Below, piece by piece: positions 2,448-54,007 of a stretch of 64,000 bases of DNA. The position numbers and the translations under genes are program-made. The notes under the pieces are model-generated. The model saw nothing but the letters and a program-made list of their open reading frames with translations, had not been told where the DNA came from and ran no database searches. The DNA comes from Escherichia phage vB_EcoM_G9062, in the sequence record NC_054920.1; one strand, 5' to 3'. Every line of letters starts with the position of its first letter. Positions within the stretch are counted from its first letter, which is position 1.

Positions 2448-4267
2448 TACTGGCTCATCCATTCTTTACGAAGGTCAGCATTATCTCCCATGAGCATTTC
2501 AAAAAGCTCTTTCCAGTTCTCAGGAAGTTTAACAACATCATATACTGGGTTTTGAATCATCTCACGATATTCAGATTTTTCCAAAGAGCCAAGTCCTTTA
2601 ATATAACGGATGCTATGTTTAGGTAGAGCATCTTTGGCACTCTCATATTCAGCGACTGTATAAAACCATTCTTGTTTTTTACCAATCTGAGCGATGATTA
2701 CAGGAGTTTTGACAAAACGAATTCGTCCTTGCTCAAACAATTCTGGCCAATTACTAAAAAATCCAAGCAGAGAAGGATAAATGCTTCCTAGACCATCATG
2801 GTCAGCATCAGTCATAATAGCAATATTATGATAATTCAAGTTTTCAGCTTTTTCACCGAGAACTAATCCAGTGATTGCGCAAATATCAAATAGTTCTTTG
2901 TTTTTAAGCATATCTGCATAAGACATACCCCAACTGTTGAGAACTTTACCGCGCAATGGATAACCACCGTGAAGTTCTTTATCACGAACATCAATAAGAT
3001 ATCCGATAGCCGAATCACCCTCAGTCAAGAAAAGAGTAGTGTCAGCATCTTTACCACAAAGATTCGCTTTGATATGTTTATGAACCTTAGCTTTAGAAGC
3101 CTTTTTAGCTGCTTTAGTTTCTGCTGCTTTTTCTGCCGCCAATTTACGAGCCAAAGCAGCTTCAATAATCGGCATTAGAATTGCTTCATTATTTAGAATA
3201 GCACGTGAAATCTTTTTAGCATCAAGCTGAATATGACTACGAATTTCGCCAAATGGAGAAGTCAAACGCTCTTTAGTTTGAGAATCAAATCGCATGTTTT
3301 TCATATCACGAACAAACATAACGATAGTCAAACATTCTTTAACACGCGCTTTAGTTACATCAATTTTGAACTTACGTTTGATTTGTGGAATAAGGTCTTC
3401 ACAAATATCATCCATAACACAGTCAATGTGATGGCCACCATTCTTAGTGTGAATGTTATTGACGTATGTTAATTGACGAAAACCATCCGGTGAACGACCA
3501 ACCGCAATAGAACAATTTTCTTGTTCTTGAACAATAGCATGCTCATCATATTGGCGTGCATATTTCTTAAAATTGCCCTGAACCTTTTTACCATTAAAGG
3601 TAAATTGAATATCAGGATAAACAACAGCAAGTGTCTGGAGACGATCTAATGTAATGTCAAGATAAACTTGAGATAATTCATTAGTTTCAAATGACATAAA
3701 ATCTGGAATGAAAGTAACACGAGTTCCTTTCCATTTTCCAGGAATAGTTTCCCATGATTTATTTTCCATGCCATTTGAACAACGAACTACAATATTATTT
3801 TGACCATCGCCAGTTTCACCGACAAACATCACAGAAAAAATGTTAGTTAAACTAGAACCAACACCATTCATACCACCGGTGACGCGTTCTTTATCATCAC
3901 CAAAGTTACCACCTGCTTTTGGAATAGTCCACGCAGCAACTGGACCAGGAATTTCTTCACCGGTAGGTGTTTTGACCATCGCTTGTGGAATACCACGACC
4001 GTTATCTTCAACTGTTACTTGATTGTTTTTAATAGTAACATTAATTTTATTTGCGAATTTAAACTTAGTACGAATACCTTCATCTACTGAGTTATCGATA
4101 ATTTCATCAATAAGCTTAACAAGACCAGGTACATACTGAACACTTTCCCATTTACCAAACAGAAAGCGCTCATGCATTTCATTAGCGGAAGAGCCAATGT
4201 ACATGCCGCTACGCTTTTTGATATGTTCAATATCGCTCAGAATTTTAATTTCATTCTTAATCATCAC
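2447..4267 (-). CDS. 39: DNA topoisomerase II large subunit, contiguous GyrB-like ATPase (606 aa)
   Basis: N-terminal GHKL ATPase motifs (GMYIGS, DNGRGIP), GyrB-like C-terminal half; single uninterrupted ORF. Confidence 0.9.
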   Translation of the reverse strand: MMIKNEIKILSDIEHIKKRSGMYIGSSANEMHERFLFGKWESVQYVPGLVKLIDEIIDNSVDEGIRTKFKFANKINVTIKNNQVTVEDNGRGIPQAMVKTPTGEEIPGPVAAWTIPKAGGNFGDDKERVTGGMNGVGSSLTNIFSVMFVGETGDGQNNIVVRCSNGMENKSWETIPGKWKGTRVTFIPDFMSFETNELSQVYLDITLDRLQTLAVVYPDIQFTFNGKKVQGNFKKYARQYDEHAIVQEQENCSIAVGRSPDGFRQLTYVNNIHTKNGGHHIDCVMDDICEDLIPQIKRKFKIDVTKARVKECLTIVMFVRDMKNMRFDSQTKERLTSPFGEIRSHIQLDAKKISRAILNNEAILMPIIEAALARKLAAEKAAETKAAKKASKAKVHKHIKANLCGKDADTTLFLTEGDSAIGYLIDVRDKELHGGYPLRGKVLNSWGMSYADMLKNKELFDICAITGLVLGEKAENLNYHNIAIMTDADHDGLGSIYPSLLGFFSNWPELFEQGRIRFVKTPVIIAQIGKKQEWFYTVAEYESAKDALPKHSIRYIKGLGSLEKSEYREMIQNPVYDVVKLPENWKELFEMLMGDNADLRKEWMSQ

Positions 4268-4316
4268 TTATCCTCGTTTGGTTTCGGGAATATTATACTC
4301 CGGTAATCATAAAGCT

Positions 4317-4334
4317 AAAGGCCCGAAGGCCTTT
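4317..4334 (-). terminator. intercistronic hairpin, C(UUCG)G loop on mRNA
   Basis: plus aaaggcccgaaggccttt; perfect stem with cgaa/uucg loop. Confidence 0.4.
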
Positions 4335-4603
4335 TATTTAAAACGAATAGTCGAATCCTTGAAGAATAGTCCAGAACATACTGTTCCTTCTACTTTCTGC
4401 CCAGTAGGTCCAATAGCACGAAATCCAGTATGTTGGAAATCATTTTCAGAACAACCGAACCAGTTATATCCAGTGATTTCAATATTAGTAAAACCGCTTG
4501 AAGACAAAACTTTGGTTGCATTATCAGCATCAGTACATCCTACTAAAGACACTGCTAATACTAATGCCGCGATAGAACGATTAATATATTTCATAATTTT
4601 CAC
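4334..4603 (-). CDS. small lipoprotein (89 aa)
   Basis: signal peptide with lipobox LVGC. Confidence 0.6.
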   Translation of the reverse strand: MKIMKYINRSIAALVLAVSLVGCTDADNATKVLSSSGFTNIEITGYNWFGCSENDFQHTGFRAIGPTGQKVEGTVCSGLFFKDSTIRFK

Positions 4604-4971
4604 TTAAATTTAATGGCTTGAAGAAGACTAATAATTCTCAAGCGACTTCCTTCATCTTTAACTGTAAAAGAAAGAGGGTCACCAGATTTCATAGTGATAG
4701 TGCATTCAAAAGCAAAACCTTCGGGAACTTCTTCGAAGAAGTCAAATTCTTCATCATAAATTAGAACATTACTCTGAAAACTGTGAAGAATTTTTCCGTC
4801 ATTTCCAGATGCTGTACTAATCATTGTAACATTATTACCTTTCATATCTTCAACGATAAATTCGCTTGTAGATATTACAGCATTAATAGAACCATTCCTA
4901 TAAATAGCAGAAAATAGATATTTCTTTTCTTCACCTTCGCGAATGCGATATTTCTTACCGATTTTAAACAT
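4600..4971 (-). CDS. hypothetical protein (123 aa)
   Basis: minus-strand ORF with overlapping stop/start to neighbours. Confidence 0.5.
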   Translation of the reverse strand: MFKIGKKYRIREGEEKKYLFSAIYRNGSINAVISTSEFIVEDMKGNNVTMISTASGNDGKILHSFQSNVLIYDEEFDFFEEVPEGFAFECTITMKSGDPLSFTVKDEGSRLRIISLLQAIKFK

Positions 4972-4973
4972 AA

Positions 4974-5150
4974 TTACCCTTTAAGTAAGTCGTAAAATCC
5001 GCCATTCACATGCTTAGGGGCAGAGACTAACCGAATAGCAATCCGATGACAATCAGGACATACATCAGTATCTCTTTCAGAAATTTTCTTGATTTTTTCG
5101 TATTCTTTTGCGCAGTCTTTTGATTGACATTTATAATCATAAAGCGGCAT
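4974..5150 (-). CDS. zinc-ribbon small protein (58 aa), not in ORF track
   Basis: my translation MPLYDYKCQSKDCAKEYEKIKKISERDTDVCPDCHRIAIRL..., CxxC...CxxC pattern, fills gap between 4971 and 5153. Confidence 0.45.
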   Translation of the reverse strand: MPLYDYKCQSKDCAKEYEKIKKISERDTDVCPDCHRIAIRLVSAPKHVNGGFYDLLKG

Positions 5151-5152
5151 AA

Positions 5153-5566
5153 TTATTCCTTAAAGTGAGCTTTCAACATCTGATACAAGGACCATGCCTG
5201 TTCATCATTTTCAATAGTAACTTTCATTACAGGGAATTTAGATTGATCAGTTATCGGTGCAGATTCTTCCTGCTCTTCAGCTGCCTGGTATGGATTTTCA
5301 ACTTCATTAAAGAATTCAGCTTCATTCGATGAAAGCCAAATAAAATCTTCATCCAAAATATCTTTACCAGAAGATAGTACTAAATTTCCAGCAAATGACA
5401 TAATTTTAATAGGACGCCCAAGAGCATCCACATCTAAAATTTTAAAAGGATGCATACCTAAACGGCGTGCATAGATTCCGTTATCAGTATGGTCTTTAAT
5501 AAAATTTTCTTGAGCTTGTTTATTTTTAAATTGATACCATTTATTAACTTCAAATTTAATAGCCAT
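5153..5566 (-). CDS. hypothetical protein (137 aa)
   Basis: minus-strand ORF, acidic C-terminal half. Confidence 0.5.
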
Positions 5567-7633: not shown

Positions 7634-8317
7634 TTATCGTTTTGTTGGAAGAGATAGAGGATCGCAATCTTCCTCTGATGGAACATCTTCAAGACCCATA
7701 GCATATCGCAAAGCGTACTTCATCATCAGGATGTCTTTCGCACAGTCATGAATAGAATCATGCGCAACGAATCCATCTAAAGTTCCTTTTGGAAGAGGAC
7801 ACGTGGTCATATCACGAACAAGCAGAAGTGCTTCAATTCTGGTACGAATATCACGCTGATTCCAGAATTTACATGGTTCTAACTTAAATGTGTCAAGTTC
7901 ATTCTCAGAAACACCATTAAGACGTTGAATATCACGAATGAGATCGACTAAAATTGGAAAATCAAACGACATTCCACGGCACCAGCCTTGAGATTTCCAA
8001 GGATCGATATTATGTGCATTGATGTAATCATTAAATTTCGCAATACCGTCGATAGTGCTTACATCTTCATCGGACGGTGCAATATTTTTTCGAGCTTCAG
8101 GAGACTGATTTTTCCACCATTCGATAGTGCTTTTAGTAAAAAGACGATGTCCTTTTTGGCTTTTTAAATCAAATTTGATTTTAATGCCGCGTGAAACTAA
8201 TTCATCAAATGTTTCAACTACTTCTGGGTTAGGGTCAAAAGCAATTACAGCTAAATCAATAACAGCTGCTTTTTCACCACTTCCCATTGTTTCAAAATCT
8301 ATAATAAAATCAAACAT
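7634..8317 (-). CDS. dexA: exonuclease A, DnaQ-like 3'-5' exonuclease (227 aa)
   Basis: 227 aa as T4 DexA; N-terminal FDFETMG exonuclease motif. Confidence 0.85.
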   Translation of the reverse strand: MFDFIIDFETMGSGEKAAVIDLAVIAFDPNPEVVETFDELVSRGIKIKFDLKSQKGHRLFTKSTIEWWKNQSPEARKNIAPSDEDVSTIDGIAKFNDYINAHNIDPWKSQGWCRGMSFDFPILVDLIRDIQRLNGVSENELDTFKLEPCKFWNQRDIRTRIEALLLVRDMTTCPLPKGTLDGFVAHDSIHDCAKDILMMKYALRYAMGLEDVPSEEDCDPLSLPTKR

Positions 8318-8592
8318 TAAATTTTCCTCGCTAAATCGCGAATTTGGCCTACAGTATAGTCTTGAATATAAACTTTATTAATAGGTTCATCAATAAATTT
8401 TGCCATAGATTCAATATCTTTTTGCATCTCTTCAAGACTGTATATTATCTTTAAAGCTTTTTCGCGAATAGTAATATTTTCAGGACCAGAATTTTTCTCA
8501 ATGACAGCTTTAACATTTGTCATAAGAGATTTAAACTGACACCAACTTAATTCAATCATTAATAATCGCCTTATAAAGATAGCTAATTTCAC
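8317..8592 (-). CDS. hypothetical protein (91 aa)
   Basis: minus-strand ORF between dexA and dda. Confidence 0.45.
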   Translation of the reverse strand: MKLAIFIRRLLMIELSWCQFKSLMTNVKAVIEKNSGPENITIREKALKIIYSLEEMQKDIESMAKFIDEPINKVYIQDYTVGQIRDLARKI

Positions 8593-8812
8593 CTAAAACA
8601 TAATCACTGATTGTGACAGTTTTCACTTCACCACAAAAGAATTCTAACGCAATTAAATCTCGTTCAATTTCTTCTAATTGAAGCATCAACTTACTAGATT
8701 CAATTTTTACAGTTTCACGATTTTTACTATAAGCTATTTCATAAATTTCGCTCACTTTATCTTGAAGCAGATAAAACTGGTCTTTAGTTATTTCCACGAA
8801 TAGCTTCCTCAA
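8552..8812 (-). CDS. hypothetical protein (86 aa)
   Basis: minus-strand ORF between dexA and dda. Confidence 0.45.
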   Translation of the reverse strand: MRKLFVEITKDQFYLLQDKVSEIYEIAYSKNRETVKIESSKLMLQLEEIERDLIALEFFCGEVKTVTISDYVLGEISYLYKAIIND

Positions 8813-9044
8813 ATTTAATTAGTAATTTACAGACACTTTCATCTAGTGTAATTACCGTATCTGTATTACTGTGATATGATTGTTTTTCAATTCGTTTAAT
8901 TGCTAATATAGTATCACTTATAAGATAAAGCTTATGAAGGAGCTCAGCTCCTGTTACCATAACATCGAGATTATCTTGCTTATTAGTATGCTTCCTTATA
9001 CCATCTATTAGACGATTTAAATATTTTGAATTGATGTTAATCAT
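8784..9044 (-). CDS. hypothetical protein (86 aa)
   Basis: minus-strand ORF between dexA and dda. Confidence 0.45.
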   Translation of the reverse strand: MININSKYLNRLIDGIRKHTNKQDNLDVMVTGAELLHKLYLISDTILAIKRIEKQSYHSNTDTVITLDESVCKLLIKFEEAIRGNN

Positions 9045-9050
9045 ATATCC

Positions 9051-10370
9051 TCACACATAAAATACGTCATAACGACCACGGGTAACACCAACATAAAGAA
9101 GTTGTTGAGCCAATTCAGCATCTGCATAATGAATACAAGGTGTATAGATGAAAGCACGGTCTACAGACATACCCTGCGCTTTATGGAATGTTGATGCAGG
9201 AAGTGCTTTCACTTTACTAAACTGTGATTTAGCATCCCAAAAATCACTCCATGGAGCTTTTCCACCCTTATTCCAGTTTTTATAAGTTTCTGCTGTTTTA
9301 CCTAAAAATAGGTTAAACTTATATAGCTCTTCATCAGATGAAATTATTTTAATCTTTTCACGATAATATTCATCATCGCCGTAAGTTTCTACTGTTAAAT
9401 CCCAATGACGAATTAAGTATTCTCCAGAAACACCACGAGCTTTAACAAATGTTGATGTATACTCTGCTTCTATAATACGAACTAATTGTCCGTTATTAAA
9501 AATAATTTCTGACACAGGCTTTCCATCAATTTTATATGTTTTAATTAATGGTTCCTGCATTACAATAATTTCACCGACAATAAAATCTTTATCAGTTTCA
9601 AAAATCTTTTTACGAATAATGCTATTTAACTTGTCAACAGATTTATTCGTAAATGCCATTACGCGATTTTCAAACAAATCATCTAGAGATTTGACGATTG
9701 AAAAATAATTTACCATAAAATCGCGTAAAGCGGTATCACCAGTAAATCCACGTACTCCATGCCCGTCAACAACTTTATCATAAATCCACTTACCGTTACG
9801 AACGTCAGTAGCTACATCAATAATAGGAGCATTACTGCGTTTAACTTCAGTGAGTTCACACTGATAAAAATCTTTATGTGTAAAGAATGGACTGATATAA
9901 GCAGTATTTTCTCCTGGATCAACAGGTCTAATTTGCTTATTATCACCTATTCCAATTATAGTACACCAAGGTGGAATAGTTGAAAGCAGAATTTTAAATA
10001 GCTTTCTATCATACATTGACACTTCGTCGCAGATTAATACCCTGCATTTAGCTAAATCTGGTACTTCCTTCTGTTCAAAAAGAACGTTTTCTTCATACGT
10101 AACTGGGTTAATTTTAAGAATACTGTGAATAGTACTCGCTTCTTTCCCCGACAGTTTTGAAAGAATCTTTTTAGCTGCATGTGTAGGAGCTGCTAAAATA
10201 ATACCAGTTTCACCCGTAGATATTAAAGCTTCAATGATGAACTTAGTAAGAGTAGTCTTACCAGTACCAGCAGGTCCATTAATAGTTACATGATGTTTCT
10301 TTTCTTTAATAGCCCTCATAACGATGTTAAAGGCATTTTTCTGGCCTTCTGTCAAATCATCAAATGTCAT
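9051..10370 (-). CDS. dda: Dda DNA helicase, SF1 (439 aa)
   Basis: 439 aa as T4 Dda; Walker A GPAGTGKTT; Walker B LICDEVSM. Confidence 0.9.
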   Translation of the reverse strand: MTFDDLTEGQKNAFNIVMRAIKEKKHHVTINGPAGTGKTTLTKFIIEALISTGETGIILAAPTHAAKKILSKLSGKEASTIHSILKINPVTYEENVLFEQKEVPDLAKCRVLICDEVSMYDRKLFKILLSTIPPWCTIIGIGDNKQIRPVDPGENTAYISPFFTHKDFYQCELTEVKRSNAPIIDVATDVRNGKWIYDKVVDGHGVRGFTGDTALRDFMVNYFSIVKSLDDLFENRVMAFTNKSVDKLNSIIRKKIFETDKDFIVGEIIVMQEPLIKTYKIDGKPVSEIIFNNGQLVRIIEAEYTSTFVKARGVSGEYLIRHWDLTVETYGDDEYYREKIKIISSDEELYKFNLFLGKTAETYKNWNKGGKAPWSDFWDAKSQFSKVKALPASTFHKAQGMSVDRAFIYTPCIHYADAELAQQLLYVGVTRGRYDVFYV

Positions 10371-42160: not shown

Positions 42161-42631
42161 TTAATCATGTTTCCACACCCCATCGGTATTTGACCAAAGT
42201 CGCTGATTATCTGATCCTCGCCACAGCTTTTTAGTCGGAAGATTTTTCTCATACTTCCCATCAATAATAACATCAACATATTTAAGCATTTCTAGCTGTT
42301 TAATATCTTCAAACTTATATCCTGTCCACAACCAAATGCTTTTATTGGGATAAAGATTTTTAATAGTTTGAACCACAGAGTGAATCACGTCTCTGTTATC
42401 AGGATAAAGAGGGTCACCTCCGGTTATAGTTAATCCTTCTATATAATCATTATTCAAACATTCAATCAATTGTTCTAGCGTTTCACCAGTGAATGGAATA
42501 CCATTTCTAGCATTCCATGTTGATTTATTATAACACCCTTCACATTTATGCAAACAACCTGTAACGAAAAGAACGACCCTGCAACCAGGGCCATTCACAA
42601 AATCACAAGGATAAAATCTATCATAATTCAT
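42161..42631 (-). CDS. nrdG: anaerobic ribonucleotide reductase activase NrdG, radical SAM (156 aa)
   Basis: 156 aa; Cys-rich radical SAM region CDFVNGPGCRVVLFVTGCLHKCEGCYN. Confidence 0.9.
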   Translation of the reverse strand: MNYDRFYPCDFVNGPGCRVVLFVTGCLHKCEGCYNKSTWNARNGIPFTGETLEQLIECLNNDYIEGLTITGGDPLYPDNRDVIHSVVQTIKNLYPNKSIWLWTGYKFEDIKQLEMLKYVDVIIDGKYEKNLPTKKLWRGSDNQRLWSNTDGVWKHD

Positions 42632-44445
42632 TGATGCTTAACCCTATGCATGATTTCTTTATTTTTACCGAGATTAAATCCGCGTTCGTTCGGGTTTCCA
42701 AGATATCCGCATGTTCTTCTTATTGTGTTCATCTTTTTAGGATCAGTTTCTCCACAAATAGAACAAACAAATCCGTTTTCAGTAGGAGTCATTTCATGGG
42801 TACTTCCGCATGTAAAACACTTATCTACTGGCATGTTAACACCAAAATAATCTAAATGTTGTACAGCATAATCCCATACAGCCTCAAGACCTTTTAGGTT
42901 ATTTTTCATATCAGGAAGTTCAACATAAGAAATGTGACCACCTGTCGCAATGAAATGATATGGCGCTTCACGAGAAATTTTTTCAAACGGAGTAATATTT
43001 TCTTCTACTGAAACGTGGAAACTATTAGTGTACCAGCCTTTATCGGTAACATCTTTTACACTTCCATATTTTTCTGTATCAAGTTTACAGAAGCGATAAC
43101 AAAGGTTTTCAGCAGGAGTCGAATATAAACTAAAAGCAAATCCAGTTCTTTCAGTCCACTGTTTAAGATGAGCATTCATTTTAGTTAAAATTTCTTGTCC
43201 AATATCACGACCGACAAGAATATTCAATTCGTGAATACCAATGTATCCTAGGGACACTGAACTTCTGCCGTTTTTAAATAACTCAATTATGTCATCATCA
43301 GGTTTAAGACGAACCCCGAATGCACCTTCTTGGTAAAGAATAGGAGCTACAGTTGCTTTAACACCCTTTAAAGAACTAATTCTACGCATCAAGGCTTCAA
43401 AGCACAGATCCATTCGTTCATTAAATAGCTCAACAAATTTCTGTTCATTGAACTGTGTTCCAATATAAGAATCTAATGCGATACGAGGAAGATTCAGTGT
43501 TACAACACCGAGATTATTACGTCCATCAAGAATTTCATTACCAGTCGAATCTTTCCATACGCTCAAGAAACTACGGCAGCCCATCGGAGAAACAGGAATA
43601 GATGAACCAGTGATAGCTTTATTGTTCTTAGCTGAAATAATATCAGGATACATCCTTTTGCTTGCACACTCTAGAGCAAGCTGCTTAATATCATAGTTCG
43701 GATCGTCTTTATAAAGATTAACACCTTCTTCAACGAACATAACAAGCTTAGGGAAAATAGGAGTTATCCCATCACGACCGAGACCTTTAATACGATTTTT
43801 CAGAATTGCTTTCTGAATCATTCGTTCAGTCCAGTCAGTTCCCGTACCAAATGTAATTGTTACAAAAGGTGTTTGCCCGTTTGAACTAAAGAGAGTATTT
43901 ACTTCATATTCATAAGCTTGAAATGCATCGTATACGTCTTTTTCTGTTTTAGATTGAGCATAATTCAACGCATCGGCGATTTGCCATTTTTCTGCATCCT
44001 CAATATGTTTTGCATAGGTGCGTTTAACATAAGGAGAAAGTACTTTATCTACATTCGCAAAAGTCGTTCCGCCGTATTGGTGAGAAGCAACCTGTGCAGT
44101 AATTTGTGCCATAATTGCAGTAGCAACGCCAATTGATTTAGGAGTTTCAATCTGTGCATTACCAAGCTTAAATCCGTTCTCAAGCATTCCTTTTAAATCT
44201 ACTAAACAGCAATTAGTAAATGGAAGAGCAGGGGAATAATCAATATCATGGAAATGAATAATTCCGCTTTCATGCGCTTTCATAATAAAAGACGGGACCA
44301 TATTTTTGGCAATGTGTTTAGACACAATACCAGCCATAAGGTCCCGTTGAGTTGGAAAAACACGAGAATCTTTATTAGCATTCTCGTTTAAAAGGTCTTT
44401 ATTAGTTTTATGAATCAATCCTTCAATTTCTTTTTCAATTGTCAT
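42628..44445 (-). CDS. nrdD: anaerobic ribonucleoside-triphosphate reductase NrdD (605 aa), uninterrupted
   Basis: 605 aa; C-terminal zinc ribbon CFTCGS...CSICG and glycyl-radical motif RRTCGYLG; ATGA overlap with nrdG. Confidence 0.95.
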   Translation of the reverse strand: MTIEKEIEGLIHKTNKDLLNENANKDSRVFPTQRDLMAGIVSKHIAKNMVPSFIMKAHESGIIHFHDIDYSPALPFTNCCLVDLKGMLENGFKLGNAQIETPKSIGVATAIMAQITAQVASHQYGGTTFANVDKVLSPYVKRTYAKHIEDAEKWQIADALNYAQSKTEKDVYDAFQAYEYEVNTLFSSNGQTPFVTITFGTGTDWTERMIQKAILKNRIKGLGRDGITPIFPKLVMFVEEGVNLYKDDPNYDIKQLALECASKRMYPDIISAKNNKAITGSSIPVSPMGCRSFLSVWKDSTGNEILDGRNNLGVVTLNLPRIALDSYIGTQFNEQKFVELFNERMDLCFEALMRRISSLKGVKATVAPILYQEGAFGVRLKPDDDIIELFKNGRSSVSLGYIGIHELNILVGRDIGQEILTKMNAHLKQWTERTGFAFSLYSTPAENLCYRFCKLDTEKYGSVKDVTDKGWYTNSFHVSVEENITPFEKISREAPYHFIATGGHISYVELPDMKNNLKGLEAVWDYAVQHLDYFGVNMPVDKCFTCGSTHEMTPTENGFVCSICGETDPKKMNTIRRTCGYLGNPNERGFNLGKNKEIMHRVKHQ

Positions 44446-46427: not shown

Positions 46428-46670
46428 TTATTCCTTAATTCCTAATACTTGTTTAAAAGTCTCGTCGTAATCAAGACTTTGGCCTGTTTGTTCTTTATGT
46501 TTGTATATAATATCACTTACTTCTGATAGCATATTTTTATATGAACGAGTTAAAGCAGATTTAAGCACGCTGTATCTATCAGGAAATTTACCGTGTTCAT
46601 TATAATAAGCTATTGCTAATTCACGGACTGCCTTTTCAGCAGCCTCCATATATTCTTTACGCTTTGTCAT
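46428..46670 (-). CDS. hypothetical protein (about 81 aa)
   Basis: probable start [13 protein letters not shown]; the longer track ORF overlaps the upstream gene. Confidence 0.4.
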
Positions 46671-46971
46671 TTTCTTCTCGGTCAAATCGGTGTTTACAAT
46701 GGCGACATTTATAACGAAGATTACTAGTCTGCCAATGGACCAATTGCACCTGTTTAGTTCCACATTCAGGGCAATTAGGAACGTTTTTAGAAGCACGTTC
46801 GCGGCGTTCAACCATGACCATTACAGAATCCCAATTAATAGGGCTGCTATAATCATCACAACCATGAATCTTTCCACGCATTTCCAAATCGTCTTCTTCA
46901 CCGGCCATAATAATTTTAATTAAACTGGAATTACTTGAAGCTGCAATGTCTTCTAATAGACGCTTTTTCAT
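46657..46971 (-). CDS. zinc-ribbon protein (104 aa)
   Basis: CPECG...CRHCKH four-cysteine motif. Confidence 0.5.
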
Positions 46972-47897
46972 TTCAATACCTCAATAGCATTACGTAAACC
47001 ATTTGCTTTTGCATTAAGAGCTTTTAACAATTTGGTGTGTTCTGCAATTTGGGCTTCAACTTCAATCAAACGAGCATTGAGATATTCGCGTTCTTCACTC
47101 AGATTATCAATCTTTTCTACTTTAGGCTCTTTTACAACTGTCTTATATGTATTAGGGTTCTTCAGTTTAATTAGAATGCGTGAACTGTATAACATTGAAC
47201 CATTATCTTCGGTTTCGTCATACATTTCTACTACGTCCATGATTTTTAACATCATGCGGAGTTTATAAGACAACGAACGAATAGTTTTGTTGTGCTTATT
47301 AATTTCTTTAGCTGTCATGGTGCCAAGATTACGTGAGTAATAATAAGGAACCTGGATATTAATTAATACTGATGAACCACCTGGCTTGTGTGTTACTTCA
47401 TCAGCAATAACCCAGTCCTTAACATGAACTGTATTTGTACGGTCATCGCCCGCGGTAAATAGTTTGCGAGCATGCTTAAAAAGCATATTCACTTGGTCAT
47501 TGAATTGACAAGCAAATTTATCAGCAAATTTAGTTTCAGGAATGGTAGAAAACCAATCAGCCAAATGAGTCTTTTTAACATCATTAACAATAGTAAATTC
47601 AACCAAATCGGTTATAGATGTCTCAGATTTAATGAAGCTCGGCTTCATAAAGTTTTTAATGTTCTCATGAGCTACAGTAGAAGATAACATACGAGAACGT
47701 TTAAACCATTCAAGCAAATTGCCTAACGAATGAGAATAAGCGTTTTGAGTATCTTTACAGATATGATTTTCCTGACCAACATATTGAAGGAAATCACGAA
47801 GAATATTATTGATTACTGCTCTGTGCCCGATCTGATAATTACGGTGTTTAGTAATAAGACTGTCAAAATAATCAATATAATGTTTACGAGTTTTCAT
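46968..47897 (-). CDS. coiled-coil family protein, paralog A (309 aa)
   Basis: MKTR N-terminus; conserved central motif; C-terminal heptad coiled coil. Confidence 0.55.
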   Translation of the reverse strand: MKTRKHYIDYFDSLITKHRNYQIGHRAVINNILRDFLQYVGQENHICKDTQNAYSHSLGNLLEWFKRSRMLSSTVAHENIKNFMKPSFIKSETSITDLVEFTIVNDVKKTHLADWFSTIPETKFADKFACQFNDQVNMLFKHARKLFTAGDDRTNTVHVKDWVIADEVTHKPGGSSVLINIQVPYYYSRNLGTMTAKEINKHNKTIRSLSYKLRMMLKIMDVVEMYDETEDNGSMLYSSRILIKLKNPNTYKTVVKEPKVEKIDNLSEEREYLNARLIEVEAQIAEHTKLLKALNAKANGLRNAIEVLK

Positions 47898-47949
47898 ATT
47901 CTTCTCACTTGGTTAATGGTTTATACTCCGAGCCATCCTTGGCTTTAAA

Positions 47950-48951
47950 TTACTTAATTAACTGTAAAGCTTGTTCAAGACGATCAAGACGATTAACGGA
48001 TTCTTCCCAAATCTTTTTAGCCTGCTCATATTCTTTCTGCGCTTTATTAGAAATTTCTAGAACTTCTTTATAAGCTTTTTCTAGTGCAATAACTTCTGGA
48101 CGAATTTCTACTGGTTCAGGCGAATCGTCAAGACATTCCATTAGTTCCTCAAGGGTAGTTTCTTCTTTAGGAGTATTCACAATTTCATCACATTTTTGTT
48201 GGTAAATTTCTTTATCAGTCGGTGAGTACGCACACTTTACTTCACGGAGACTAACTACAATTTTATATCCTTCCCAACCGCATATATTCTTAAAAGGATA
48301 AGTATGAATATTTTCTACTGTTTCCATACAAAGTAATGCGGTCTCTAACTGACGAGTTATATCGCTAGCAATTGAGAAAAATTTATTAATGTTCTTTTGA
48401 TTAGCTTCTGGTGTAAAAAATTCATAATTCACAAAAATAGCTGCTTTATTTTTATCAAGCTCATATTCTTTTATGATAATCATATCAGAAGCCCAAGGAT
48501 GGATTTGACGATAATCACCATAGCATAATTTAGAAGCTGATTTTAGAATTTGCTTCTTGAAAAGTCTAAAATTACTAATCCAACGACGAGTAAAAATATT
48601 CTCAGGGTCTTCTTTATTATTAAGATGATAAGAATTAACATCACCGAACCAACTGTATCCTACTACATCTTTAGTTCGTTTAATTTCTTTCCCAAATTTA
48701 CCAAGAATATCTTGATTAACTAAATATGAAAGAAGACGAGAACCTTTAAAAGTTTCCTTAATATCATCTTTATATTCGCGACTAGAAATTTTATGAACTT
48801 CATGAATAAATTTGCTTGAAGAAACAATACTTGCATCAATATTATTGAGCCATTGATTGATAATGGAAATAACACTATTCTGACTAAACACAGGTTTAAC
48901 TTTATCATCAATAACGCTATTGAATGATTTGATATATTCGTTACGAGTCAT
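47950..48951 (-). CDS. coiled-coil family protein, paralog B (about 334 aa)
   Basis: start MTRNEYIK at 48951 after SD GAGGAG; motif RRWISNFRLFKKQILKSASKL. Confidence 0.55.
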   Translation of the reverse strand: MTRNEYIKSFNSVIDDKVKPVFSQNSVISIINQWLNNIDASIVSSSKFIHEVHKISSREYKDDIKETFKGSRLLSYLVNQDILGKFGKEIKRTKDVVGYSWFGDVNSYHLNNKEDPENIFTRRWISNFRLFKKQILKSASKLCYGDYRQIHPWASDMIIIKEYELDKNKAAIFVNYEFFTPEANQKNINKFFSIASDITRQLETALLCMETVENIHTYPFKNICGWEGYKIVVSLREVKCAYSPTDKEIYQQKCDEIVNTPKEETTLEELMECLDDSPEPVEIRPEVIALEKAYKEVLEISNKAQKEYEQAKKIWEESVNRLDRLEQALQLIK

Positions 48952-48980
48952 ATTAATCTCCTCAGTAGAAAGTAAGAACA

Positions 48981-49009
48981 TTATACCACATCCTTGTGGC
49001 AAAGTAAAC
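48981..49009 (-). promoter_or_regulatory. T4-type early promoter
   Basis: minus-strand GTTTAC (49009-49004), 16 nt spacer, GTATAA. Confidence 0.5.
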
Positions 49010-50028
49010 TAGTTTAGTGCATTTAGTGCATTGTTCAGTTTAGAACGTTGCTTCGTAAGATTTTTGACTTTTTCTTGAGCTTTTTCTAGCATCTTTTCAG
49101 CTTCTAACACTTCATTAGTTGCTTTAACGAGTTCATCATCTACTGCCTTGATAGACTTCTCAATCGCATCCGCGTGCCATTTTTCAACAGGTTTAAGACT
49201 CGGATTTTCAACAGGAAGAAAATTCACTTTGTTGAATTTCCATGTATCTTTATTACCTGAACTATACATCCAAAATTTAGGATCGTTTGATGAGTAATTG
49301 GATAAATTTAAGATATCTTGCACTTCCTGCTTTTTCTCTTGCGGGACTTCGTCCTTTCTCAAAAAATCGTATTTAAATGAAACGATCATATCAAGTTCAT
49401 ACGTTGTTGTATGTTCCCAATTTCGCTCAAAATGAGGTAAAATCTTAGACTGAACCGCGGCAACTACATCCATATACTTAAATGCTTCTGTCAACTGTGA
49501 TTTAAGGCATTCACAAATTGAAAGAGAATTTTTTGTATTAGGTTTAAAGCTAATTCGTGCAGTTCTGTTATTTTCTTTTAATGGTCTTACTTCCATCTGA
49601 AGAGTATAACCATCAAATTTCAGATTCTTTAAGTTAATATCAGAACCTTTTAATCGACTAGCCGTCGACAAAATTTGCTTTAATTGTTTACGGAATAGAG
49701 CAATAAATCTCCACTCAATACGATAATGATTTGGATTAAAAAATCCTGTTGATAAATCAACCTTACTCTGACCAACGCCTTGAACAAATAGAGGATTTTT
49801 ATAATCAATAGTTTTACAGAAATCGGTGAGCTGCTCACGAGCCGTCATTTGTGTAATATACCCCGCTTTACTAAAATGACGTAACCATTCACTGCTATTC
49901 ATATATTTAAAGTGAATATCACGATTAACTTTATCAGGGTCTAAATTATTTTGGCACAAAAATGTCATAACATCACGAGTATAACTGGCATTACGAACCA
50001 TATCTTCAATTTGAGAACGAGTTTTCAT
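49009..50028 (-). CDS. coiled-coil family protein, paralog C (339 aa)
   Basis: MKTR N-terminus; motif IEWRFIALFRKQLKQILSTASRL. Confidence 0.55.
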   Translation of the reverse strand: MKTRSQIEDMVRNASYTRDVMTFLCQNNLDPDKVNRDIHFKYMNSSEWLRHFSKAGYITQMTAREQLTDFCKTIDYKNPLFVQGVGQSKVDLSTGFFNPNHYRIEWRFIALFRKQLKQILSTASRLKGSDINLKNLKFDGYTLQMEVRPLKENNRTARISFKPNTKNSLSICECLKSQLTEAFKYMDVVAAVQSKILPHFERNWEHTTTYELDMIVSFKYDFLRKDEVPQEKKQEVQDILNLSNYSSNDPKFWMYSSGNKDTWKFNKVNFLPVENPSLKPVEKWHADAIEKSIKAVDDELVKATNEVLEAEKMLEKAQEKVKNLTKQRSKLNNALNALN

Positions 50029-50036
50029 GGTGTTCC

Positions 50037-50939
50037 TTAAAATTTAAGTAAATCAACGATTTTAATTAATTTTTCACGCTCAGATTTAGCTTTACTACTC
50101 AATCCAGATAGTCTGAAAATTTCATCATCATATTGCTGAATAGAAATATTTAGCTCTTCAATCTGTTTATTAAAATAATCAATTTGTTCAGAATGTTTTT
50201 CGTTACTACGAACTGGTACAGGTTTTGTAGGCAATTTAGTTGAACTGGATTCATCCGGGCGATAAATTAAAATACAACTTGAACCAATAGGGCATTTTGC
50301 ACCAGATGAATATTCTAATGTTCCGGCTTCTTTTAAAACTTCAAAAGCTAAACAGAGATGATGCCCCATATTGACATAATCTGTAGAGTGAGCTCTGATG
50401 TAATAATCATCTCCACGAGTACTAAATTTAAAGCATTTAAGGTCTTCTGTATTATTGGTCTTAAAAATCATTTGTTTATCTAGACCCTTAGCTAATCGAG
50501 CGCCTAATGCTAATAATCGTCGTTGATTTTCCCACAAATCCTCAATCATTTGATCGAATGATAATTTTGGCATTAGTCGACCATAAAGGTCATATCCTTT
50601 ATTATAATTACGAAGGATTTCACTCGCGTTAATACGAGACAACGCTCCAATTTTATTAAGGGCTTTCATAATGCGATTAGATAAACCCATTCCAGACCCG
50701 TTTGTTCGTTGTAAATGTTTTTCTAATCCAAACCCAATATCAACTTTAAATTTATCTAAAATTTCAGCATGAACGTCTCTGTCAATAACATTCAAATCCA
50801 AAGTTGGGTTAAATCTATGAAAAAATTTATCTGGCTCTCCACGACGAAGTACAGTCCATTCATTCAATTTTTTATTAACTAAAGATTTAATTACTGCATT
50901 GACATTATTAATTACTACTGACATATTTTCCTCACTCAA
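50037..50939 (-). CDS. coiled-coil family protein, paralog D (300 aa)
   Basis: motif WENQRRLLALGARLA; C-terminal coiled coil. Confidence 0.5.
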   Translation of the reverse strand: MSEENMSVVINNVNAVIKSLVNKKLNEWTVLRRGEPDKFFHRFNPTLDLNVIDRDVHAEILDKFKVDIGFGLEKHLQRTNGSGMGLSNRIMKALNKIGALSRINASEILRNYNKGYDLYGRLMPKLSFDQMIEDLWENQRRLLALGARLAKGLDKQMIFKTNNTEDLKCFKFSTRGDDYYIRAHSTDYVNMGHHLCLAFEVLKEAGTLEYSSGAKCPIGSSCILIYRPDESSSTKLPTKPVPVRSNEKHSEQIDYFNKQIEELNISIQQYDDEIFRLSGLSSKAKSEREKLIKIVDLLKF

Positions 50940-51395: not shown

Positions 51396-51923
51396 TTATG
51401 CGAGTACCGTCTTTAACCGTTCTTCAAACTTCCGAAGAGTATTCTGGCGTTCAGCTCTTTGCTTTTTGTAAGTTTCAATACGCTCTGAAATGAGAGTGTA
51501 TCGTTCATTTACTGATTCTTTCATAAAATCAGGAATTTCACGAGAAGCTTTAATCTCGTCAAATTTATCAATAACTGCTTGCTCTTCAGCAATTAAGTTA
51601 TCATACATCAAAATATCTTTCTTGATGAACTCAATATCTTCTTGAGTTACACGAGATAATTTAGATGCTTTATCCTTTTTGTACTGTTCGTTAGTATCAC
51701 GAGACCAGTGTAATGTACGATTTTTATTCGTATTCTTGTAAATTTCTACAATACCAATCTCATCGATAATAACGATCCAATTCCAACGAGATTTGTAAAT
51801 TTGTCCTCCGTCAACCGTGATTTCACCTCCGATTGAGATGTCATTAAAGAACTTGCTTTGTGCTTCAGATTTAAATTTACCATCGTTGTAATTTACCAGG
51901 TTGAAAATATCTTTAGCGTTCAT
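51396..51923 (-). CDS. hypothetical protein (175 aa)
   Basis: minus-strand ORF with conserved GGAG leader downstream of promoter. Confidence 0.5.
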   Translation of the reverse strand: MNAKDIFNLVNYNDGKFKSEAQSKFFNDISIGGEITVDGGQIYKSRWNWIVIIDEIGIVEIYKNTNKNRTLHWSRDTNEQYKKDKASKLSRVTQEDIEFIKKDILMYDNLIAEEQAVIDKFDEIKASREIPDFMKESVNERYTLISERIETYKKQRAERQNTLRKFEERLKTVLA

Positions 51924-53426: not shown

Positions 53427-53690
53427 TTATTTTAACGTTCGCCAAATTTTTACTGCTTCACGGCGAGATACTTCTACAGCTCCAAGTTCTACAGCTTTTT
53501 GGCGTCGGCGAGCGTGTAAGTCATAATGTTTAATGCGTTTATCTTGAAACCAAGAACGTTTCATTCCTATTGCTTCTGCCATTTCATGAAGCTCTTCAAT
53601 ATCTCCATCAGTGAACATATGACAATTTTTAGTTGGATGACCGCGAAGTTTCCATCCATGATTCATTAAAACATCTACGTAAACTGTCAT
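53427..53690 (-). CDS. small conserved protein (87 aa), DUF4031-like
   Basis: pattern VYVD...GWKLRG...HYDL resembles a prophage-associated domain from memory. Confidence 0.4.
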   Translation of the reverse strand: MTVYVDVLMNHGWKLRGHPTKNCHMFTDGDIEELHEMAEAIGMKRSWFQDKRIKHYDLHARRRQKAVELGAVEVSRREAVKIWRTLK

Positions 53691-54007
53691 TGATTCTTCT
53701 CCAAATAAGTTTCGATAATTTTCTGAGCGAGATAAACTGCATTATCTTCAGTTGCATCTTCTAAGAAACTTTCAAAACACTCTGAAATTTCTTCTGTATC
53801 AATCAACTTTTTTACTTCAATTGGTGTAATTTTCATTTTGTTTTTCCGTTTAAGTGTTTGTTTTGATAGTTGTATAGTACCATAAAGCTTTATGCTTGTA
53901 AACAATTTTGTGAAAAATTTTTGAAATAAAAAAAGGGAGCCCGAAGGCTCCCTATCATTTATAATAACTTCGGTGGTTTTCAAGATAAACCCTCTCAAGG
54001 AAGTCAT
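53687..54007 (-). CDS. hypothetical protein (106 aa or shorter)
   Basis: minus-strand ORF; start uncertain. Confidence 0.4.
   Translation of the reverse strand: MTSLRGFILKTTEVIINDREPSGSLFLFQKFFTKLFTSIKLYGTIQLSKQTLKRKNKMKITPIEVKKLIDTEEISECFESFLEDATEDNAVYLAQKIIETYLEKNQ
53873..53903 (-). promoter_or_regulatory. T4-type early promoter with conserved leader
   Basis: minus-strand GTTTAC (53903-53898), spacer, GGTACTATAC, AACTATCAAA leader. Confidence 0.5.
53935..53952 (-). terminator. intercistronic hairpin, C(UUCG)G loop
   Basis: plus gggagcccgaaggctccc. Confidence 0.45.

Follow-up and report, generated by a model that had tools for sequence, protein, structure and literature searches.

In phage T4, a clone carrying a deletion no longer plated on ECOR17, and deletion of the host gene dsr1 restored plating; cloned dsr1 protected MG1655, and plasmid-borne nrdC.5 restored the infection of dsr1+ cells (Srikant et al. 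2022, PMC9391042). The same study called nrdC.5 an early gene. The SIR2 NADase Dsr1 carries an Avs7-type TPR sensor, which is reportedly triggered by a phage major capsid protein (PMC12803255). Two nearby T4 gene products are also directed at host immunity, namely, gp49.2, which inhibits OLD (PMC13096335), and that of nrdC.1, which inhibits Septu (bioRxiv 10.1101/2025.11.20.689424), and nrdC.1 to nrdC.6 can be deleted from T4 (PMC9825161). A further set of T4 proteins, Ip1, Ip2, and Ip3, inhibits the diversified GmrSD type IV restriction enzymes in a subtype-specific manner (PMC12373910). A literature search for nrdC.3 to nrdC.6, DUF7235, anti-Dsr1 proteins, and the mechanism or paralogy of NrdC.5 retrieved nothing later than Srikant et al. 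2022. Here, we analyzed a 64,000-nucleotide stretch of Escherichia phage vB_EcoM_G9062 (NC_054920.1; referred to below as the window), in which a first-pass annotation had described a tandem array of four paralogous genes at positions 46968 to 50939. We found that these genes, termed A to D, are true, very divergent, ancient tandem paralogs of one Straboviridae-specific family, the NrdC.3-NrdC.6 superfamily, and that C is the ortholog of the anti-Dsr1 gene nrdC.5.

The window belongs to a Tequatrovirus, and its 3,972-bp array region is 99.1% identical to that of phage YUEEL01 and matches 655 phage records. A comparison with the annotated T4 record identified the four consecutive open reading frames (ORFs), which lie on the minus strand at the positions initially given, as the orthologs of nrdC.3, nrdC.4, nrdC.5, and nrdC.6:

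46968 to 47897, minus strand: paralog A, ortholog of T4 nrdC.3, 309 amino acids; matches phrog_1435
47950 to 48951, minus strand: paralog B, ortholog of T4 nrdC.4, 333 amino acids from the ATG at 48951; matches phrog_1435
49009 to 50028, minus strand: paralog C, ortholog of T4 nrdC.5, 339 amino acids; Pfam DUF7235 (PF23882); phrog_2351
50037 to 50924, minus strand: paralog D, ortholog of T4 nrdC.6, 295 amino acids from the ATG at 50924; matches phrog_2257

The array is flanked by nrdC, nrdC.1, and nrdC.2 on one side and by nrdC.7 to nrdC.11 on the other. As originally described, three proteins start with MKTR (A and C) or MTR (B), and D starts differently. For D, the ATG at 50924 is a more likely start than the listed TTG at 50939, which would yield 300 amino acids; this ATG is preceded by the Shine-Dalgarno sequence GAGGAA, and close homologs of D have 295 to 296 amino acids. 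The ATG of B at 48951 is preceded by GAGGAG, and the TTG-extended starts of both B (49002) and D (50939) were dropped in favor of the ATGs with Shine-Dalgarno sequences.

Existing resources split the four genes into three families, namely, phrog_1435 (A and B), phrog_2351 (C), and phrog_2257 (D) in PHROGs and PF26897, PF23882, and PF26899 in Pfam. Protein C matches PF23882 over its full length with 420 bits (E value of 8.3e-126; gathering threshold of 30 bits) and is the sole member in the Pfam sense, since A, B, and D did not match the DUF7235 model. Precomputed Pfam labels place the B family in PF26897 and the D family in PF26899; D obtained no family in our Pfam scan because PF26899 was missing from the copy scanned, as was PF26897. 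Many phage records label all these genes "thioredoxin," and the T6 record even contains "tail sheath stabilizer." The thioredoxin labels have apparently spread from the locus names nrdC.x, and the Pfam scan detected no thioredoxin domain in any of the four proteins.

To assess paralogy, family alignments were built from homologs in a large protein collection and from other phage loci and were compared using hhalign. At the level of single sequences, A and B share 25% identity over 229 amino acids in blastp, and A retrieved JS98 NrdC.4 with a phmmer E value of 1.8e-10; direct blastp comparisons were not significant for the pairs A-C, A-D, B-C, B-D, and C-D. The profile comparisons led to the following results. 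(i) The A/B family matched the C family with 94.5% probability and an E value of 7.7e-8 over 172 columns outside the coiled coil. (ii) Direct comparisons of D with A/B (E value of 0.018) and with C (0.006) were weak, with probabilities of 2.5 to 10%; these alignments keep the register of the A/B-C alignment, through both conserved motifs described below. (iii) An exhaustive HMMER search of the D profile against 1.84 billion representative proteins retrieved, beyond the D family, the distant proteins P0234, P0236, and P0237 with library-wide E values of 1.9e-7 to 2.6e-5, and these proteins match the C and A/B profiles as well. (iv) A bridge family composed of these three proteins and the single-copy genes at the same locus of Kanagawavirus IME523 and Mosugukvirus PM2 matched D with 98.9% probability (E value of 2.4e-17; 202 columns), C with 98.7% (2.4e-16; 247 columns), and A/B with 93.8% (1.8e-7; 107 columns). 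The assignment of D to the family thus relies on the bridge sequences and the structural evidence, because its direct comparisons are weak. (v) When the last 60 residues were removed from every alignment, the E values were 2.5e-9 for bridge-D, 1.8e-7 for bridge-C, 1.8e-5 for bridge-A/B, and 1.8e-6 for A/B-C, and the direct comparisons of D with A/B and C without the coiled coil gave 0.003 to 0.01. (vi) The negative controls nrdC.8, nrdC.10, nrdC.11, and nrdD had E values of at least 0.05. Since the links persist without the coiled coil and the controls are clean, the similarity is neither compositional nor merely that of coiled coils, and the paralogy initially proposed is confirmed. The description as a fourfold duplication does not hold in the sense of a recent event: the copies are only 12 to 25% identical to each other, the lineages D, C, and A/B are common to four genera, and a single copy occupies the same locus in two further genera. 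The four genes are known T4 ORFs; the apparent novelty is that three families of "unknown" function form one superfamily, to which a validated Dsr1 antagonist belongs.

Two further candidates for membership were rejected. The gene nrdC.8 (51396 to 51923; 175 amino acids) ends in a heptad-like helix (…RKFEERLKTVLA), and a 175-amino-acid protein of KPV15 is present in both Foldseek lists, but the hhalign matches of nrdC.8 were only at the coiled-coil level (E values of 0.05 to 0.23). The genes of 256 to 261 amino acids that adjoin the single-copy members in IME523 and PM2 exhibited no similarity.

The conserved central motif reported by the first-pass annotation (motif 2, F..NQ...L..A.RL..GD.R) is real, and a second conserved motif (motif 1, FK.SR.LS....A...L..F) is located upstream of it. 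In the profile alignments, both are found in the same order and register in A, B, C, D, and the bridge proteins. Their positions and those of the C-terminal heptad segments are as follows:

47439 to 47504, minus strand: motif 2 in A, FNDQVNMLFKHARKLFTAGDDR, amino acids 132 to 153
48508 to 48570, minus strand: motif 2 in B, FRLFKKQILKSASKLCYGDYR, amino acids 128 to 148
49633 to 49695, minus strand: motif 2 in C, FRKQLKQILSTASRLKGSDIN, amino acids 112 to 132
50475 to 50537, minus strand: motif 2 in D, LWENQRRLLALGARLAKGLDK
47649 to 47705, minus strand: motif 1 in A, FKRSRMLSSTVAHENIKNF
48694 to 48750, minus strand: motif 1 equivalent in B
49819 to 49875, minus strand: motif 1 equivalent in C
50604 to 50660, minus strand: motif 1 equivalent in D
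46971 to 47117, minus strand: C-terminal heptad segment of A, last 49 amino acids
47953 to 48099, minus strand: C-terminal heptad segment of B, helix 285-332 in the model
49012 to 49158, minus strand: C-terminal heptad segment of C
50040 to 50186, minus strand: C-terminal heptad segment of D, helices 240-271 and 276-294 in the model

All four proteins end in a heptad repeat, as had been noted. In the last 49 residues of each, 86 to 93% of the a/d positions are hydrophobic, compared to 17 to 29% elsewhere, a value reached by only 0 to 5 of 2,000 shuffled sequences. Counted from the C terminus, the heptad register is identical in the four proteins, each of which ends with L..A[IL]..L[KN].

AlphaFold2 models were generated for B (mean predicted local distance difference test score of 83.2) and D (mean of 77.6). 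Both show the same order of elements: N-terminal helices are followed by the motif 1 helix pair, the motif 2 helix pair, a long helix between two beta-hairpins, a linker modeled with low confidence, and a long C-terminal helix; B has an extra three-stranded insert between the two helix pairs. In Foldseek searches of BFVD, the B model matched JS10 NrdC.6, a member of the D family, with an E value of 5.7e-5, and the matches common to both models include proteins of PM2, IME523, and Serratia phage PS2. Further matches were to proteins of T4-like phages of Acinetobacter, Erwinia, Klebsiella, Yersinia, and Citrobacter. Each family member would consist of strain-variable N-terminal helices, the motif 1 and motif 2 helix pairs, a hairpin/helix/hairpin domain, a disordered linker, and a heptad helix of about 45 to 50 residues, which is predicted to form a dimer or higher oligomer.

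The copy-number comparison suggested in the initial description showed that the number of copies varies from one to four across T4-like genera. There are four copies in Tequatrovirus, three in Mosigvirus (D, C, and A-like), three in Dhakavirus and Gaprivervirus (D, C, and B-like), one in Kanagawavirus and Mosugukvirus, and two in Acinetobacter phage Acj61. The gene order D-C-(B)-A is constant, and the position between nrdC/nrdC.2 and nrdC.7-nrdC.10 is kept in the window, T4, T6, JoYop, RZ, JS98, AV111, IME523, PM2, and Acj61. The Acj61 genes p120 (330 amino acids; E5E4A1) and p121 (304 amino acids; E5E4A2) are adjacent and lie between nrdC and nrdC.10 (3452 to 5472 of the examined locus). In Foldseek, p120 was a structural match of the B model and p121 of the D model. 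The assignment of this pair to the family is based on Foldseek and visible motifs, because sequence profiles alone miss the two proteins (hidden Markov model E values of only 0.009 to 0.3). Acj61 belongs to the Twarogvirinae, and the tandem arrangement therefore exists in another subfamily.

The four ORFs are intact in most of about 650 records, and several rearranged loci were identified. A deletion in ACG-C40 leaves D (nrdC.6) and stubs of nrdC.5 and nrdC.3 (8805 to 9216 of the examined locus). In one metagenomic phage, nrdC.4 is deleted, and NrdC.5 up to amino acid 271 is fused to NrdC.3 from amino acid 137 at a short FN..VN microhomology (protein P0225); this fusion is out of register, and we rejected its interpretation as an in-register recombinant between paralogs. 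In phage G8, a frameshift splits nrdC.4 into two ORFs (IMG/VR contig IMGVR_UViG_2974742932_000001; locus 7950 to 8982), and BFVD contains short B-like (nrdC.4-like) fragments of phages G8 and T2.

To analyze the rates of evolution, gene-wide ratios of nonsynonymous to synonymous substitution rates (dN/dS) were calculated for the window versus T4, T6, and JoYop. These were 0.16 to 0.29 for A, 0.14 to 0.17 for B, 0.14 to 0.25 for C, and 0.05 to 0.17 for D, compared to 0.00 to 0.10 for nrdD, gene 49, nrdC, and nrdC.8 to nrdC.11. The values of the array genes are thus 2 to 10 times those of their neighbors, yet well below 1. The four genes evolve faster than their neighbors and are overall under purifying selection, and the diversifying selection proposed earlier is not shown by these gene-wide values. 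D is far more conserved than A, B, and C. Gene A is dimorphic: the allele in the window is 61 to 63% identical at the amino acid level to those of T4 and T6 (61.6% to T4, with a dS of about 1) and 74 to 78% identical to the Mosigvirus copies. The adjoining nrdC.2 (46657 to 46971) is a mosaic with 64.7% identity to T6 and 95% to T4. This pattern of A and nrdC.2 points to allele exchange between genera rather than to rapid divergence, and the distance of A from its T4 counterpart would reflect an old, swapped-in allele. Among orthologs, variation is concentrated at about amino acids 21 to 60 and 180 to 280, and motifs 1 and 2, the first hairpin, and the coiled-coil end are constant.

The array lies, as initially stated, in the plastic nrdC-tk early region. 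The early promoter that had been assigned to B was found again as a match to the T4 early-promoter consensus, located between C and B:

48980 to 49008, minus strand: T4 early-type promoter match for B, presumably also for A; GTTTAC, N17, TG.TATAAT (TG-extended)

This match is followed by GAGGAG and the ATG of B, and the record of phage ASO78A (98% identical) likewise marks this site as matching a T4 early promoter. No equally good site was found directly upstream of A, C, or D. Judging from the sequence, transcription of A would depend on the B promoter and that of C and D on promoters located further upstream, and all four proteins would be made early in infection. A terminator-like hairpin at 49001 to 48984 falls within the promoter spacer and probably has no significance.

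As to function, the initial statement that none is evident is out of date for C, which is 92.6% identical at the amino acid level to T4 NrdC.5. The initial suggestion of a role against host defense factors is upheld for this gene by the ability of T4 nrdC.5 to overcome Dsr1 (PMC9391042), and gp49.2 and nrdC.1 are encoded nearby; for A, B, and D, it is an extrapolation. Taking together the nrdC.5 data, the shared architecture, the behavior as accessory genes, and the neighboring counter-defense genes, we favor, with some reservation, the reading that NrdC.3 to NrdC.6 form an expanded family of oligomeric proteins that inhibit host immunity early in infection, in which each paralog has its own target or target variant. 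We infer for this reading anti-defense roles of A, B, and D, direct binding, and oligomerization. Family members would inhibit host immune proteins by binding them stoichiometrically; C (NrdC.5) would neutralize the SIR2 NADase Dsr1 in this way, and A, B, and D would act likewise on further immune proteins or on different variants within the same sensor family. Specificity would reside in the variable surfaces, and avidity would come from the coiled coil.

Several observations weigh against this reading. (i) The functional data cover one of the four paralogs (NrdC.5), for which direct binding is itself presumed. (ii) Oligomerization is predicted solely from the heptad pattern. (iii) There was no match to a known anti-defense or defense family: NCBIfam and PADLOC scans and sequence searches of the Protein Data Bank were uninformative, returning only designed helical repeats and coiled-coil noise, and the sole PADLOC match, that of B to BrxC, was at the coiled-coil level (E value of 0.0047; 13 bits). 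(iv) The gene-wide dN/dS values are below 0.3, without gene-wide positive selection. (v) D has 96 to 98% amino acid identity within the genus, close to ordinary genes, which would fit a housekeeping-type role equally well.

Alternatively, the four genes would be paralogs with NrdC.5 as the sole immune inhibitor, and A, B, and D would serve a different early purpose, for instance host takeover or regulation, or be redundant or decaying copies. The restriction of functional data to nrdC.5, the frameshift-split B of G8 together with the short G8 and T2 fragments, the loss of A, B, and C in ACG-C40, and the much better conservation of D are in line with this possibility. However, the ORFs are intact in most records, the dN/dS values of 0.05 to 0.29 indicate purifying selection and thus no decay, and the region is rich in known anti-defense genes; we regard this alternative as unlikely, although it retains appreciable weight.

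Another alternative arises from the structural comparisons. The best structural matches of the central alpha/beta domain of the B model were tail terminators (lambda gpU, T5 p142, Mu, SaPI1 DUF3168, and others), with modest scores. The enrichment for one protein class is striking and hints, without proving it, that a virion-protein fold is the origin of the central domain or is mimicked by it. This resemblance, along with the Avs7-type TPR sensor of Dsr1 and its reported triggering by a major capsid protein, is the basis for a version in which the proteins would be early-made mimics of virion proteins, with a terminator (tube/neck)-fold domain multimerized by the coiled coil. As decoys, they would occupy sensors of late structural proteins or mask their triggers, each paralog blinding a different sensor before the late proteins appear. 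We consider this version distinctly improbable; were it true, a structural-protein fold would have been reused by phages to build a decoy array that can expand. The same resemblance could also indicate a link to virion assembly, the proteins binding or chaperoning tail or neck proteins rather than host proteins. No tail-terminator Pfam family was detected in the four proteins at an E value of 1 or below, and the genes are located in the early nrdC-tk region and not in the late tail module; a role in assembly appears very doubtful.

The two remaining explanations carry little weight. It is most improbable that the four are early DNA-binding proteins, with helices at the N terminus akin to the SAM-like core-binding domain of tyrosine recombinases, an idea prompted by weak matches of amino acids 30 to 86 of A to Phage_int_SAM_1 and to XerC and XerD N termini; these matches (E values of 0.003 to 0.12) fall far short of the family cutoffs. 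Least credible of all is that the genes are unrelated and their likeness purely compositional, due to an AT-rich genome and a helical or coiled-coil bias: the nonsignificant blastp comparisons, the three separate families in Pfam and PHROGs, and the low direct hhalign probabilities of D would agree with it, but the bridge links (E values of 1e-16 to 1e-7) survive coiled-coil removal and share one motif register, the controls did not match, the elements of the B and D models follow the same order and the models cross-match in Foldseek, and the gene order is conserved across genera.

Three side observations concern the neighborhood of the array. The nrdD gene (42628 to 44445; 605 amino acids) is uninterrupted in the window; that of T4 has an intron with I-TevII. 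Two small ORFs of 87 amino acids (53427 to 53690) and 106 amino acids (53687 to 54007) are located between nrdC.10 and nrdC.11, where T4 has none. In ACG-C40, a gene annotated as DUF4031 is found at the corresponding place.

Under the favored reading of an expanded family of immune inhibitors, a number of implications can be derived. Among these four genes, which are abundant accessory genes of T-even phages, a role is known for only one, and a single family is hidden behind three of "unknown function." As a consequence, nrdC.3, nrdC.4, nrdC.6, and their single-copy relatives in other genera are candidate new immune inhibitors. The shared scaffold, with variable amino acids 21 to 60 and 180 to 280 as opposed to a conserved core, may serve to map specificity, and the natural series of one, two, three, and four copies may reveal how counter-defense repertoires expand and contract. 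No new principle is involved, since T-even phages are already known to carry accessory-gene islands and sets of paralogous inhibitors.

The closest known system is T4 NrdC.5 (DUF7235) itself. Protein C is its ortholog, encoded at the same position, whereas A, B, and D are remote homologs with the same architecture that fall below the DUF7235 model. PHROGs (1435, 2351, and 2257) and Pfam (PF26897, PF23882, and PF26899) treat these proteins as three unrelated families of unknown function, which are joined here via bridge sequences and structure. A functional analog of NrdC.5 is the SPbeta-phage protein DSAD1, which reportedly blocks a defense-associated sirtuin, the SIR2 NADase DSR2, by binding. 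The target of DSAD1 is a different protein, since DSR2 is a sensor of the tail tube; similarity to NrdC.5 was neither detected nor expected, and binding by NrdC.5 is presumed. Ip1 to Ip3 are small, packaged into the capsid, and injected, whereas NrdC.3 to NrdC.6 have 300 to 340 amino acids, would be made early from the genome, and possess a coiled-coil tail, and there is no sequence relationship between the two sets. They would nevertheless be alike in concept, in that one T-even genome encodes several related accessory proteins, each fitted to a variant of a diversifying host defense, with a gene content that varies between phages (PMC12373910).

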